Both the position numbers and the translations under genes were made by a program. Shown here one piece after another: positions 21,692-29,728 of a DNA stretch of 32,000 nt. Numbering within the stretch: position 1 is the first letter of the stretch; each line of letters opens with the position of its first letter. Source of the stretch: an uncultured Methylococcaceae bacterium. Lineage in GTDB: Bacteria; Pseudomonadota; Gammaproteobacteria; Methylococcales; UBA1147. The notes under the pieces were generated by a model. It saw only the letters and a list, made by a program, of their open reading frames with translations. It was not told where the DNA came from and did not search any database. The stretch covers positions 59,510 to 91,509 of the forward strand of contig CAZUGA010000015.1 in NCBI GenBank assembly GCA_964619885.1, read 5' to 3'.

Positions 21692-22612
21692 CTAATCCCC
21701 AATCATCGCCCAAACGCCGAATACCATAATTATGCTACCAACAAGCTTTGCCGGGACATGCCGTTCCTGGAACAAATAATGCCCCAAAAGCACGGTAAAC
21801 ACACTGGCCATACGCTTAACCGCCATCGCGTAGGATGCCAGAGTCATGCTCAACGCGATTTGATCAGCCAGACGCATCAGCGCGAAAAACACCCCCAACA
21901 ACGCCAGAGAACCTACATGCTTGCGCGCATGCCGGCCGAAAACCTCGTGGTAAAAATTGTGGTTGAGCAAGCTGAATATGATAAAAAGCACCACCGGATT
22001 GACCATCGCAACCATTACCGTAAATGACAGCGGATCGCTCAACCGGATCGCTTCCCGGCCTAATGTTGAAGCGGTTGCAAAGCACAAGCTCGCGATCACC
22101 GCGTAACGACTGCCGTGGTTGGTAAATAAGCGCACAAACGGTGTATACCATTGTTGTTTGAGAACGTTTAACCCTAAGATATAGCTGCCCGTGCAGAGCA
22201 GACCAATGCCCAAAAAACCCATCGATGATGGCACATCGCCCAATAACAGCCATTCAATAATAATTACAAATCCGGGGGTTAACGTAATCAATGGTCCCAC
22301 GATCGAAATCTCACTGACCTTGATCGCATAGTTGAACGCCCAACCGCCCAAACCAGACAATACCGCCCCAATCAAGACCGCTGACAGATAACGCGGGTTA
22401 TCAAGAGGGAATTGGTGGTTCCAGATAATTAGCGGCAGAGTAATGCAAAGACTTGCAAAATTGACGTAAAAGGTCAGAGCCTGCGCGGAAAAGTTAAAAC
22501 TCAGTTGTTTGGCAACCGCAATCCTGGATGCTTGAAAAAATGCTGACAATAGCGAGACCAACACCCATGCATTTGAAAAATCCAACATCGTTTGAATCAG
22601 ACCTCGCGCCAA
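21692..22612 (-). CDS. DMT-superfamily (EamA-like) transporter
   Basis: About ten hydrophobic helices in two halves. The probable ATG at 22588 lies 8 nt after the upstream stop; the track ORF begins at TTG 22612. Confidence 0.75.
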   Translation of the reverse strand: MARGLIQTMLDFSNAWVLVSLLSAFFQASRIAVAKQLSFNFSAQALTFYVNFASLCITLPLIIWNHQFPLDNPRYLSAVLIGAVLSGLGGWAFNYAIKVSEISIVGPLITLTPGFVIIIEWLLLGDVPSSMGFLGIGLLCTGSYILGLNVLKQQWYTPFVRLFTNHGSRYAVIASLCFATASTLGREAIRLSDPLSFTVMVAMVNPVVLFIIFSLLNHNFYHEVFGRHARKHVGSLALLGVFFALMRLADQIALSMTLASYAMAVKRMASVFTVLLGHYLFQERHVPAKLVGSIIMVFGVWAMIGD

Positions 22613-23979
22613 CCTTGCGTCGAATCAATATAGTGGTGGTCAACCACCCGTTCTATATCAAAAGCATCTTTGAGCATAGCGTAATTATAGGCGCAAAATT
22701 GCTCTTGGAATCGGGTTCTAGTCGACCAGGCCTTTTCACTGAAAGTCCCCTGATTTCTTAGAATTCTGCAACACGCTATGCGCCGTAGTGCAACCAGACC
22801 AGACCCGCCAATCGCCGACAACAATTTAAGCTGTATATTCAAGTAAATTTCATTGGAGTCGATCAGTGGTTTCTCCATTTTGTTTAGTCGCGGTGAATAT
22901 AGATTCATCGCATAGGCCGGATTATTTAATGATAAATGTCGAAGCCTGGTGCGTTTATGTCGCTTAAAATAGGACATCATCGTGGGCGAAACATTGTGCA
23001 ATTTAGCGGCTAAAAATTTCAACTGTTCTGCTATCTCTGCAGAATAACCCAATTTATCGATGTTAACCGCGATAGTTCGCTGGGGAAGCAGATCGAATCT
23101 TTGCCACTCGGAAGGCGAATCGGTGCGACCGGTCAACGCGGCGTTTAGCTGTTGCGCTCCCGTTTCGATAATTTCATGAATACGTTGGATCAACGCTACA
23201 AATGCGCTACTATTCAACACAGTCCAATCATCGAGTTGCATCAAACAACCCAGTGGTAATCCACGCTCGATACTATCGGCCGGATCAAATGGCTTGAGCG
23301 TTATTCCGGGTATTTCGAAGCCTATACCCCGCAAGCGTTCGTGCACCATCGCCGCACCTAGGAACAACAAAGGATCCAGCAAACGTTGCCGCAACAGATC
23401 GGTCGGCCGAACCGAATCTCGCTCCAGGTTTTCTAAACCAGTCAGCTCGCTTTGCTTCCAATACAAAAAATGCATATGGAATTGCTTGCTGGCCTGGATG
23501 CTCTCTCTATCCCGAGTATTCGGATCGCAATTGACACCCAGATGAAGTTCACCGCCCTGCAAACCAAACGAATCAATAATATCCGGCCGCGAAACAAATT
23601 CCACGAAATGGTAAGCCGATCGGCACATCAATTCGCCGGTTTCACGACCAATTTCATTTACCGTGGCTTTTAGCGGTTCACTTACTTCGGTGCACATCAA
23701 ATCAATACAACTGTGCGGGGAGACTTTATCCACAAATGCCAGTTGATCCCGTTGAGACCGTGCTCCACGACCAGTAGCAACCATATCCAACTTTTGTATG
23801 GTACGGCGCTTAAACCTAACCGCTGCATCACTAGAAGTGGATTCTTGCGAATTCAGACGGTAAGGCGCAGGTGGCCCTGGAATATTTACGCTATTCCATG
23901 CAACCGGTAAAGCATCAACATTTTCAGGGTACAACGCCGCAAATGAATCTACCGGCATGCAGACGCCTGCTGGGTACAT
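22597..23979 (-). CDS. Uncharacterised 460-aa protein with a HIT-like H-x-H-x motif (possible nucleotidyl transferase or phosphorylase)
   Basis: Long ORF embedded in the operon by overlaps at both ends. ASKQFHMHFLYW resembles the HLHFQ(A)YY-type motif of the GalT/Apa/GDP-hexose-phosphorylase branch of the HIT superfamily. Nothing else was recognised. Confidence 0.7.
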   Translation of the reverse strand: MYPAGVCMPVDSFAALYPENVDALPVAWNSVNIPGPPAPYRLNSQESTSSDAAVRFKRRTIQKLDMVATGRGARSQRDQLAFVDKVSPHSCIDLMCTEVSEPLKATVNEIGRETGELMCRSAYHFVEFVSRPDIIDSFGLQGGELHLGVNCDPNTRDRESIQASKQFHMHFLYWKQSELTGLENLERDSVRPTDLLRQRLLDPLLFLGAAMVHERLRGIGFEIPGITLKPFDPADSIERGLPLGCLMQLDDWTVLNSSAFVALIQRIHEIIETGAQQLNAALTGRTDSPSEWQRFDLLPQRTIAVNIDKLGYSAEIAEQLKFLAAKLHNVSPTMMSYFKRHKRTRLRHLSLNNPAYAMNLYSPRLNKMEKPLIDSNEIYLNIQLKLLSAIGGSGLVALRRIACCRILRNQGTFSEKAWSTRTRFQEQFCAYNYAMLKDAFDIERVVDHHYIDSTQGWREV

Positions 23980-24587
23980 TCCGCTACAACCACGCCGATG
24001 TCCTTAACCGCTGTCGCTATTAACTGCGCCAAAACTAGATTGAAGGCCGCAACCACACTTGCCATAGATGTATCTTCCGCCGATTCCGCTTGACTATAGC
24101 CGTGCTGGAATACTGTTTTTCGATTTTGTGCATTGATCAGGCCCAACTCAAACTCAATATTCACTTGGTTAACATCGCGCAAATGTTCGATACGAAACAG
24201 CGTCCCGGACACGATCCAATTGGCGTTTGCGCGTTCGGCTGGGGTAATAACGTACTCGGCGATGTGTTCCGCTCTTAATGCCTGAACTATGGCATCTTGT
24301 ATCATCGCCGCAGGTGGGTCTGACCAAAGCCGGTTACGGTATCGCTGAACCCTCAACCGGTCCACATTATCGCGAAATACGATGCGTGCACCACCGGAAA
24401 AACCGCGCGCATTTAATTGCGTGACCAAAATTGTACCGGTAGAAATCTGCTTTGCCGGCACAGTAACCGGCTCCGGTTCCAAACGATAGAATTGATCTTG
24501 CGGCGGTGGCGTAGCACTACAACCTATCATGAGCAAAACCAAACAAAGCGACAACGCGCTGCAGATTGGATACCTCCGGCTAATCAT
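23949..24587 (-). CDS. ABC-transport auxiliary lipoprotein (DUF330/YmbA-like) of the MCE system
   Basis: ATG at 24587 forms an ATGA overlap with the MCE gene stop. Signal peptide MISRRYPICSALSLCLVLLMIGCS (lipobox). Size and position match the fourth gene of MCE-type ABC clusters. Confidence 0.7.
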   Translation of the reverse strand: MISRRYPICSALSLCLVLLMIGCSATPPPQDQFYRLEPEPVTVPAKQISTGTILVTQLNARGFSGGARIVFRDNVDRLRVQRYRNRLWSDPPAAMIQDAIVQALRAEHIAEYVITPAERANANWIVSGTLFRIEHLRDVNQVNIEFELGLINAQNRKTVFQHGYSQAESAEDTSMASVVAAFNLVLAQLIATAVKDIGVVVAECTQQASACR

Positions 24588-28916: not shown

Positions 28917-28927
28917 CTAGTCGTAGC

Positions 28928-29728
28928 TCAACCTTTTAATAAACTGCGAATCGATGATTCGAATTTCACTCGACTATCTTTAATGCTGACCGTCTGAACG
29001 TATCCCGAAGCCGCAAGACTCTCCGCTCTAGCATCGGTACGCTTACCTTTAAGAGTTACAGCCAAACAATCGGCAGCGCGACCGCTACCCGAAACAACCA
29101 ACGCAACCCGTTTTTGATTGACGCTGCACGACACATCCGACCAAGTGATCTCTCCTCCATTGACAACCAGGGTTAGCGATCCAAACCCGTCTGATAATGC
29201 ACTGCCAATTTGCGCCATCCACGGAGACTCATCACCCCAGTCGTTGCCTGGCACCAAAATAAAATGGCTATGATTACAGGCCAATGTAGGTATTTCAGTT
29301 GGGATCGCGGACCGACCTGGTTCTATAATAGTCCCGATCGCAGCTACCCCGAGTAGCGGAAAGTCACCGTTAATCTTCTGCCGGGCAATACCGATGCACC
29401 GCATCACGCCAGTATTTGTGCCCCCATCAATTACGCTGGCGCCTAACGATTGAGCAGCCGGAGCCACCACATCACTAAAAAAACCCTGTAAACGTTTCGC
29501 ATCGATTTCGGAAACCATGCCAGCCCCACCAACCAACACGATGACCGGTGCTTTGGCCATTCCTAAACAAAGCAGCGCTTGCGGAATGTCTGCGTAGGTA
29601 TCAACACTGGTTGCATTGGCGATATTACCACCTGCTACCGTGCATTTAAAACAACGTAGGATCGTATTTTTGCCAAAATCCATAGGGTATAAATTCTGCC
29701 AACCGCCATTACTTTCAGTGAAATACAA
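28928..29728 (-). CDS. SLOG-superfamily protein of the TRPM-associated (LSDAT-like) type
   Basis: APVIVLVGGAGMVSE (GGxG loop), VIDGGTNTGVM, and VALVVSGSGRAADCLA. The last closely resembles the xVVxEGSGRxADVIA motif of TRPM channel N-terminal SLOG domains. Start uncertain (TTG 29728 or ATG 29683). Confidence 0.65.
   Translation of the reverse strand: MYFTESNGGWQNLYPMDFGKNTILRCFKCTVAGGNIANATSVDTYADIPQALLCLGMAKAPVIVLVGGAGMVSEIDAKRLQGFFSDVVAPAAQSLGASVIDGGTNTGVMRCIGIARQKINGDFPLLGVAAIGTIIEPGRSAIPTEIPTLACNHSHFILVPGNDWGDESPWMAQIGSALSDGFGSLTLVVNGGEITWSDVSCSVNQKRVALVVSGSGRAADCLAVTLKGKRTDARAESLAASGYVQTVSIKDSRVKFESSIRSLLKG

Follow-up and report, generated by a model that had tools for sequence, protein, structure and literature searches.

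A RyR-domain protein encoded with an MCE transporter module in Methylococcales and Chromatiaceae: a candidate nucleotide-sensing partner of an envelope transporter

Eight minus-strand genes in a 32,000-nucleotide stretch of DNA from an uncultured Methylococcaceae bacterium (contig CAZUGA010000015.1, positions 59,510 to 91,509; hereafter the window, with positions numbered from its first letter) encode a SLOG protein, a RyR-domain protein, the four components of an MCE-type ABC transporter, a soluble protein of 453 or 460 residues and an EamA transporter. A preliminary description, made from the sequence alone, had presented these open reading frames (ORFs) as one tightly coupled operon, and an ORF check of the window reproduced all eight of them, with their coordinates and every junction. 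In the order of transcription they are:

28928..29728, minus strand: SLOG (LSDAT_prok) gene; the longest ORF has 266 residues, and gene callers start at ~29683 (251 residues)
27093..28916, minus strand: RyR protein, cytoplasmic and multidomain, 607 residues (Pfam RyR, 9e-11)
26345..27145, minus strand: MlaE-family ABC permease with six hydrophobic segments (Pfam MlaE, 1e-44)
25603..26340, minus strand: MlaF-like ABC ATPase (Pfam ABC_tran, 4e-31; NCBIfam MlaF, 3e-36, sub-equivalog)
24584..25606, minus strand: MCE (MlaD-family) protein, 340 residues (Pfam MlaD, 1e-9; TIGR00996, 2e-20, residues 28-307)
23949..24629, minus strand: PqiC-like auxiliary outer-membrane lipoprotein, here Aux (Pfam ABC_trans_aux, 6e-13); likely start at 24587, in an ATGA overlap
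22597..23979, minus strand: cytoplasmic protein of 453 or 460 residues (start at 23958 or 23979), called the 460-residue protein below; an accessory of the MCE module
21692..22612, minus strand: EamA/DMT membrane transporter with two repeats (Pfam EamA, 3e-25); optional terminal gene

Eleven nucleotides (28917-28927) lie between the SLOG stop and the RyR start, and the RyR stop falls 53 nucleotides inside the long MlaE ORF (27093-27145), or 11 nucleotides inside it with the shorter start chosen by the JGI gene caller. MlaE and MlaF are 4 nucleotides apart, the next two junctions are ATGA overlaps (25603-25606 and 24584-24587), the Aux stop overlaps the gene for the 460-residue protein by 10 nucleotides if the latter starts at 23958 (the 453-residue reading), and that gene is followed by EamA across an 8-nucleotide gap or a 16-nucleotide overlap. 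This junction geometry, together with the recurrence of the arrangement elsewhere, bears out the coupling of the unit, and the SLOG, RyR, MlaE, MlaF, MlaD, auxiliary lipoprotein and DMT assignments all stand in Pfam.

The RyR domain scores 42.3 bits against a curated PF02026 cutoff of 27.4, which places the protein within the family. Its AlphaFold2 model (predicted local distance difference test, pLDDT, 87.6; predicted template-modelling score, pTM, 0.91) resolves four domains: a variable N-terminal α/β domain (residues 1-110), a degenerate Rossmann/TrkA_N-like domain (111-292), a two-repeat RyR/R12 domain (293-432) and a C-terminal α/β domain (433-607) without an assigned fold. With Foldseek, residues ~295-430 match RyR Repeat12 structures at E ~1e-6 (target-normalised template-modelling score at most 0.63), among them entries with ATP, with ADP/AMP-PCP and with dantrolene as well as a Bacteroides RyR chimera, to which phmmer also connects the protein (1e-17); the remainder gives generic Rossmann-dehydrogenase matches only. 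The RyR assignment of the preliminary description was thus upheld by Pfam, Foldseek and phmmer. A hydrophobicity scan revealed no convincing transmembrane segment, the N-terminal, Rossmann-like and C-terminal domains match nothing in Pfam at E = 10, and there are no SLOG-RyR fusions among the longer members of the RyR family.

In an alignment of 34 members of the RyR-protein family, four residues of the RyR domain, H377, W380, H402 and D419, are invariant. Their spacing (3, 22 and 17 residues) is that of H75, W78, H100 and D117 in RyDEP, a phage RyR-domain protein that uses these residues to bind or hydrolyse 2'/3'cADPR, a cyclic form of ADP-ribose (ADPR), and whose pocket residues are conserved across PF02026 (PMC13232231). 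Since the four equivalent residues are invariant and identically spaced, the pocket, including its H/D dyad, appears intact. Animal R12 domains bind ATP or ADP (PMC13642953, PMC12627627; PDB titles), and, judged by residue conservation, the bacterial domain is an intact pocket for a predicted adenine-nucleotide or ADPR-type ligand. The animal R12/RY12 domain, which binds ATP, ADP and dantrolene, and RyDEP have their fold and signature residues in common with this domain; however, RyDEP is a stand-alone phage counter-defence protein and R12 is part of a Ca2+ channel, whereas here the domain is one of four in a cellular protein whose gene is linked to those of an ABC transporter.

The transporter genes supply the permease and ATPase, the anchored MCE protein and the PqiC-like lipoprotein that characterize the PA3211-PA3214/PqiC-lipoprotein class. 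That class combines an MlaE-like permease and its ATPase with an MCE protein bearing a helical needle and an octameric PqiC-like outer-membrane lipoprotein; its substrate and transport direction are still unknown (PMC13631591). In the window, the MCE protein has a lone hydrophobic segment (residues 25-56) as its N-terminal membrane anchor, followed by a long C-terminal helical region, and its 340 residues are comparable to the 312 of PA3213; a helical needle is predicted here as well. Aux begins with a signal-like hydrophobic stretch that ends in LLMIGC, a near-consensus lipobox with Met at position -3, and gives a weak NCBIfam PqiC match. The best reading of these sequence features is a PA3211-PA3214-type tripartite trans-envelope MCE system, which would move a hydrophobic substrate, probably a lipid. 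MlaE and MlaF fall under their NCBIfam equivalog cutoffs (scores of 85 against 315 and 125 against 441; 50 against 135 for MlaD), which makes this a divergent clade. The canonical Mla pathway was considered and rejected: neither a STAS-domain (MlaB) gene nor a MlaC or MlaA gene occurs within the operon, and the scores are far below the equivalog cutoffs. The four components match those of PA3211-PA3214 and of the XCC0632-type system of Xanthomonas, and more distantly those of PqiABC and MlaFEDB of E. coli, but the described PA3211-PA3214/XCC0632-type operons, unlike this locus, contain no RyR, SLOG, 460-residue or EamA genes. What is new, this comparison suggests, is a RyR-domain partner for an otherwise ordinary MCE transporter of a known class.

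The protein encoded by the first gene belongs to the SLOG superfamily, as the preliminary description had proposed, with matches to LSDAT_prok (7e-59; 198.8 bits against a PF18171 cutoff of 25.4) and LSDAT_euk (2e-12). Among solved structures, the N-terminal regions of TRPM2 channels come closest to it in sequence (E = 1e-7), and those of TRPM4 and TRPM8 are similar to it as well. The N-terminal region of TRPM2 (MHR1/2) is an ADPR-binding site, and the SLOG domains of TRPM2 and of ThsA, from the Thoeris defence system, are sensors of ADPR or of cyclic ADPR isomers that gate an effector. In these relatives the SLOG domain is fused to the effector, whereas here it is a stand-alone protein of about 250 residues, optional, and linked to the RyR gene instead of directly to a membrane effector.

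Eighty loci with 10-kb flanks, one per species genome, were searched by tblastn with the eight window proteins; loci are designated below by L numbers. MlaE-MlaF-MlaD-Aux follow immediately downstream of RyR on the same strand at 28 of the 73 loci with enough downstream sequence, and the RyR and MlaE genes adjoin or overlap one another in Methylococcales, Chromatiaceae, the alphaproteobacterium Sphingobium and an unclassified metagenomic locus (L099). Three gene orders occur: RyR-MlaE-MlaF-MlaD-Aux in Methylococcales and Chromatiaceae; RyR-MlaE-MlaF with MlaD-Aux convergent on the other strand in Sphingobium (L096; RyR 29% identical); and MlaD-Aux-RyR-MlaE-MlaF, with overlapping junctions, in L099. 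The end of RyR runs into the start of MlaE not only in the window but also in L096, L099 and every Methylococcales locus; the Methylococcales loci all share the 53-nucleotide overlap and the N-terminal extension of MlaE. The same eight-gene run is found on independent metagenome contigs, the closest relatives of the window, itself part of a marine metagenome contig of about 91 kb, being metagenome-assembled genomes (MAGs) of Methylococcaceae, and the full order recurs in several Chromatiaceae (for instance Marichromatium L066/L067, L036, L044 and L088). Because homologous arrangements appear on independent contigs and in dozens of species, the association is far beyond chance, and because the partners stay the same in three gene orders and the start/stop overlap persists at 24-53% protein identity, RyR and MlaE/MlaF probably form a functional unit.

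The SLOG gene lies immediately upstream of RyR at 39 of 76 species loci, within ~10 nucleotides, with or without the MCE module. Where the flanks suffice on both sides (70 loci), SLOG and MCE occur together at 17, SLOG alone at 19, MCE alone at 10 and neither at 24 (Fisher p = 0.15); given RyR, SLOG and MCE are thus statistically independent, and a direct coupling of SLOG to MCE is rejected by this table. The closely related locus L001 (RyR 53% identical, likewise preceded by a PEP-CTERM gene) has no SLOG, and in Methylococcaceae UBA2778 (L085, positions 8970-9890, equivalent to L002) a Bestrophin_2 gene (6e-58) occupies the slot directly upstream of RyR; a patatin gene stands just before it on the opposite strand. 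As SLOG and MCE each attach to RyR and not to one another, the locus is modular, with the RyR protein, not SLOG, as hub of the system, joined by an optional SLOG, the MCE module and the optional MCE accessories (460-residue protein and EamA). The coupling of SLOG and RyR to MCE genes in the preliminary description is therefore sustained for RyR, whose link to MlaE/MlaF recurs in other lineages and is not coincidental, and fails for SLOG, which is optional and independent of MCE.

The setting of the RyR gene differs between orders. In Methylococcales the genes upstream encode a PEP-CTERM protein, a cytochrome c, a Bestrophin or NadA, and the RyR-MlaE junction persists next to each. In Chromatiaceae the position of RyR on the chromosome is constant, behind genes for DJ-1, GGACT and OsmC (~50 loci). 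The DJ-1/PfpI-GGACT-OsmC trio stands ~2.5 kb upstream of RyR in L006-L080, often with a GT4 glycosyltransferase gene; OsmC is co-directional and close to SLOG, and may be co-regulated or merely syntenic. A plasmid search found no plasmid-borne copies. Remote relatives of the RyR protein have other neighbours: those of 710-730 residues (L096, positions 359-6992, Sphingobium; L098, positions 9180-11036) are flanked or overlapped by genes for Peptidase_C14 (caspase-like), FGE-sulfatase and Peptidase_C1 proteins, a context like that of conflict systems, and a TrkA_N+RyR relative (L100) has a TIR_2 gene and a CHASE2 gene ~1.2 kb away. Domain-specific hidden Markov models detect the C-terminal domain in remote relatives whose genes abut MlaE (P0097, P0099 and P0100), and leave it undetected in P0107 (caspase-FGE-sulfatase context), P0096 (near TIR_2), P0116 and the AAA-RyR proteins. 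In this small sample, the distribution would look like that expected of a domain that docks onto the transporter.

Building on the observed gene content, domain identities, pocket-residue conservation and recurrent linkage, we propose, with about even confidence, that the operon encodes an MCE transporter of PA3211-PA3214 type and, in the RyR protein, a nucleotide- or ADPR-sensing regulator of its MlaFE core; SLOG would be an optional co-sensor, and the 460-residue protein and EamA would be optional accessories. The permease and ATPase would sit in the inner membrane, the helical needle of the anchored MCE protein would span the periplasm, and the lipoprotein would be at the outer membrane. 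The C-terminal domain of the RyR protein (433-607) probably docks onto MlaF/MlaE, and ligand occupancy of the RyR pocket would switch transporter activity; SLOG, where present, would act through the RyR protein, and the 460-residue protein and EamA would serve the MCE module. Such a role would be analogous to that of MlaB, the cytoplasmic STAS auxiliary subunit needed for the function of E. coli MlaFEDB, except that it would be ligand-gated. Like the RyR protein, MlaB is a cytoplasmic accessory encoded in the same operon as its transporter, but it has ~100 residues and a STAS fold without a ligand pocket, whereas the RyR protein reaches 600 residues in four domains, one of them with a nucleotide-type pocket; no sequence or fold relation between the two was detected by Pfam at E = 10 or by the profile search of the PDB with the C-terminal domain. 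Of the interpretation given in the preliminary description, the domain calls, the unit and the MCE link are retained, and the focus on SLOG and the labels attached to the 460-residue protein are abandoned.

Several observations weigh against this proposal. The equivalence with the RyDEP residues comes from motif and spacing, not from structural superposition, and with its H/D dyad intact the RyR domain could be catalytic instead of sensory. In the Rossmann-like domain the glycine-rich loop is gone (consensus AGFA in the 34-member family alignment), and no fold was identified for either terminal domain, the PDB profile search with the C-terminal domain having come back empty. Recurrence in Chromatiaceae is in good part inherited synteny, so that the independent observations are few, about 3-4 lineages or arrangements. 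An adjacent MCE module is absent from 43 of the 70 RyR loci, which means that the RyR protein can function with no transporter gene next door, or use one located elsewhere in the genome, as in Thioalkalicoccus. The interaction of the RyR protein with the transporter, the identity of the ligand, the direction of regulation and the substrate are, finally, matters that we infer.

MCE transporters are central to the Gram-negative envelope, and it is not yet known what the PA3211-3214/Pqi systems carry, which way and under what control. If the proposal is right, this would be the first sign of a transporter of that class gated by a small-molecule signal, and the conserved pocket residues would offer a handle for testing when and why it runs. 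The function of bacterial RyR domains has been newly opened by phage proteins that bind or cleave cyclic ADPR immune signals; to these the locus adds a cellular RyR protein, widespread and with the same pocket, whose genetic partners are defined and which may have a source of ADPR nearby. In agreement with the preliminary description, which knew of no system coupling such parts, the searchable literature, the 2015 SLOG survey (Burroughs/Aravind) excluded, yielded no description that pairs RyR or SLOG with MlaE, MCE or Mla.

The possible ADPR source is a gene that the preliminary description had overlooked and that recurs beside these cassettes:

7201..11913, plus strand: STAND NTPase of 1570 residues with DUF4062 (weak), nSTAND1 and WD40 parts, convergent with the operon and ~10 kb away

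It matches Pfam nSTAND1 at 1.5e-97 and DUF4062 at 1.7e-4, the latter under cutoff: in the window copy and in that of L099 the DUF4062 matches reach 22-23 bits against a gathering score of 24.7. Homologues of 1500-1640 residues abut the cassette convergently at 16 of the 80 loci, and 15 of these 16 carry MCE; in L074 the STAND gene directly abuts RyR, and in L099 a homologue, 39% identical, stands divergently beside the permuted cassette. The copy in the window shows 37% identity. All in all, STAND genes were found beside cassettes in L002, L021, L031, L034, L038, L047, L055, L057, L059, L064, L066, L067, L072-L074, L079, L085, L086, L088 and L099. The convergent orientation occurs in Chromatiaceae and Methylococcaceae, and the cases from the two families may represent one ancestral arrangement. 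According to passages of a preprint (bioRxiv 10.64898/2026.05.01.722283), DUF4062 is a TIR-like NADase that produces ADPR and acts in defence by NAD+ depletion, not by signalling; the term SLOG is absent from the preprint and these passages draw no link to RyR or MCE, though no term search for RyR, MCE or Mla was run on it. As far as those passages describe them, the eukaryotic TEP1 and NWD1 share the DUF4062-STAND-WD40 architecture of the window gene, which differs from them and from the Swarozyc DUF4062 NADase in its sub-threshold DUF4062 match and in having nSTAND1, not NACHT.

Of the other explanations, the one that survives best, which we nevertheless think unlikely, is a conflict (defence) system based on NAD+ and ADPR, in which the STAND NTPase would sense an invader or stress, DUF4062 would convert NAD+ to ADPR or a derivative, SLOG and RyR would sense or turn over the nucleotide, and the MCE module would be the membrane effector, through envelope remodelling or abortive damage. 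The frequency of STAND genes next to the cassette, in all but one case with MCE, their presence at L099 and in the window, the reported production of ADPR by DUF4062, the binding or cleavage of cyclic ADPR signals by RyR-domain proteins, the closeness of SLOG to the N-terminal domain of TRPM2 and the caspase-FGE-sulfatase or TIR_2 neighbours of remote RyR relatives all point in this direction. Nevertheless, the DUF4062 matches are sub-threshold, the defence reported in the preprint passages is depletion and not signalling, and the STAND gene runs on the other strand, in the window at a distance of 10 kb that holds unrelated genes and two tRNAs, while many MCE-bearing loci have none in their flanks. 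PADLOC matches no SLOG, RyR, 460-residue or MCE part and returns generic ABC-ATPase hits only, and the cassette holds a fixed chromosomal position in Chromatiaceae instead of lying in a variable island, with no plasmid copy in the plasmid search. With respect to a Thoeris-like defence in particular, a STAND gene with a TIR-like DUF4062 part recurs nearby, although its DUF4062 match is sub-threshold, SLOG is not fused to an effector and no PADLOC system is matched. We give a similarly low probability to a single ADPR signalling system formed by the cassette and its STAND neighbour, in which the NADase would make ADPR or a derivative and the RyR protein, with SLOG as co-sensor, would read or degrade it and switch the MCE lipid transporter. 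In that event lipid trafficking would be among the responses to immune or stress signals derived from NAD+, and the bacterial RyR domain would have its first cellular, non-viral role.

The 460-residue protein matches nothing in Pfam, NCBIfam or PADLOC, and its confidently folded AlphaFold2 model (pLDDT 88.3, pTM 0.91) finds no match at E < 0.1 among PDB or viral BFVD structures with Foldseek. It had been called an orphan, wrongly: an exhaustive profile search places it in a family of at least 181 representative clusters, 33 close clusters being found in a word-indexed database, and a metagenome scan with the subfamily alignment added 5 short loci only. K78, H82, D150 and G384 are invariant in the family, T148, R151, H161, H163, D195, R287, R401 and R414 are at least 90% conserved, and the motifs DRE[SN]G[QM]...KRFHxH, which includes a strand, and FSxxGGAG, a loop, recur; this conserved polar core forms an enzyme-like pattern. 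Behind the label HIT-like, which had also been applied, there is only the HxH strand, F-H-x-H-[LF]-[LI]-Y-W, whose two histidines are in register with H112 and H114 of HINT1, with H161 on the nucleophile histidine. The first position of the HIT triad motif HxHxHxx is Q or R here, not His. Statistical support from profiles and folds is wanting: Pfam gives no hit at E = 10, the PDB profile search is empty, hhalign against HINT1 yields a probability of 0.2 over 11 columns, and the best HIT fold match in Foldseek is the Ap4A phosphorylase 3ANO (E = 0.24, probability 0.41). With 11 columns at that probability and so uncertain a fold match, the protein is not filed as HIT.

Its gene always lies downstream of Aux, also where the MCE operon stands alone, and is present at 8 of the ~28 MCE-bearing loci; it goes with the MCE module and not with SLOG/RyR. 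EamA, whose family membership is evident from its two repeats and multiple hydrophobic segments, occurs at 6 of these (6 of all 80 loci), each time after a homologue of the 460-residue protein. In Thioalkalicoccus limnaeus (L087, positions 6738-13302) MlaE-MlaF-MlaD-Aux and the 460-residue homologue stand alone, on another contig than the SLOG-RyR pair of the same genome, and the last, overlapping gene encodes, in place of EamA, a 623-residue HAMP-GGDEF protein, a further signalling protein attached to this MCE clade. In a Chromatiaceae-like MAG (L086, positions 15222-19961) Aux is followed by genes for HAD/UbiA prenyltransferase, FAD_binding_4, SDR and LPG_synthase_TM proteins, with neither the 460-residue homologue nor EamA; this set resembles DprE1/DprE2-type lipid-linked sugar chemistry. 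Distant family members of ~400-440 residues on high-GC contigs (L089/L090, L092, L093 and L094) are encoded beside PEP-utilizers/PPDK_N genes and condensation and PP-binding genes of nonribosomal peptide synthetase (NRPS) type. These contexts suggest an enzyme that modifies small molecules and has been recruited to some of the MCE operons. The protein in any case defines a confidently folded, unmatched and enzyme-like family that extends to NRPS-type contexts.

That the locus is at heart a biosynthesis-export pathway appears distinctly improbable. Here the 460-residue enzyme would make or edit a nucleotide-activated or lipid-linked molecule, EamA would take it across the inner membrane and MCE across the periplasm, and SLOG and RyR would regulate the process or supply the nucleotide moiety. 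The enzyme-like polar core with its HxH strand, the tight coupling of the gene to Aux, its persistence in the stand-alone operon, the EamA gene that follows it at six loci and the NRPS and PPDK_N neighbours of distant relatives agree with such a pathway. Yet both genes are present at a minority of the MCE-bearing loci, and therefore are not core to RyR-MCE function; a GGDEF gene takes the place of EamA in Thioalkalicoccus, L086 carries a different gene set after Aux, and no chemistry can be assigned to the 460-residue protein, the HIT identity being unsupported. The synthesis-plus-export idea of the preliminary description accordingly fits some loci and not the majority. Least probable of all is fortuitous co-transcription, that is, a SLOG-RyR pair with an unrelated target that was placed upstream of a housekeeping MCE operon and inherited by related Gammaproteobacteria: SLOG-RyR pairs or lone RyR genes without MCE, MCE with the 460-residue gene but without RyR in Thioalkalicoccus and the strong vertical synteny in Chromatiaceae would suit it, but an alphaproteobacterium has the link too, as does a permuted operon with RyR between Aux and MlaE, the start/stop overlaps survive deep protein divergence, the RyR-MlaE junction stays while the upstream flanks vary between orders, and the C-terminal domain co-varies with MlaE adjacency.

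The remaining features of the window lie on either side of the operon:

30002-30036, minus strand: intrinsic terminator of the upstream PEP-CTERM gene, a hairpin with a T-run that marks the 5' boundary of the unit
30058-30660, minus strand: gene for a PEP-CTERM sorting-signal protein, directly upstream of the operon, in the same placement as in the relative L001
20345-20519 and 20965-21160: two copies, ~175 nucleotides each, resembling miniature inverted-repeat transposable elements (MITEs), with terminal inverted repeats, downstream of the operon

The strong upstream terminator claimed in the preliminary description was confirmed by its T-run and by its folding energy (-28.2 kcal/mol, z = -5.67; none of 200 shuffles was equally stable). 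A consensus terminator scan overlooked it, internal terminators and promoters did not rise above shuffles, and an Rfam search of the operon returned no riboswitch and no other structured RNA. Beyond the PEP-CTERM gene, a Cu-oxidase_3 (multicopper-oxidase-type) gene at 31341-32000 on the plus strand is cut by the end of the window. Between the STAND gene and the operon, the minus-strand stretch 11993-19957 encodes RtcB, a PcfJ-like protein, a 306-residue ORF without assignment and two adjacent rhodanese fusions, one with an MCP signalling part and one with a metallo-beta-lactamase; genes for tRNA-Gln and tRNA-Leu (15103-15264) also lie there. The stretch may be inserted material. The transposon debris that had been noted directly downstream of the operon corresponds to the MITE-like pair (20321-21168), whose copies are 94% identical over 140 nucleotides, are spaced by 620 nucleotides, end in the terminal inverted repeats TCTGGGGACA / TGTCCCCAGA and bracket a 121-residue ORF at 20547-20912.

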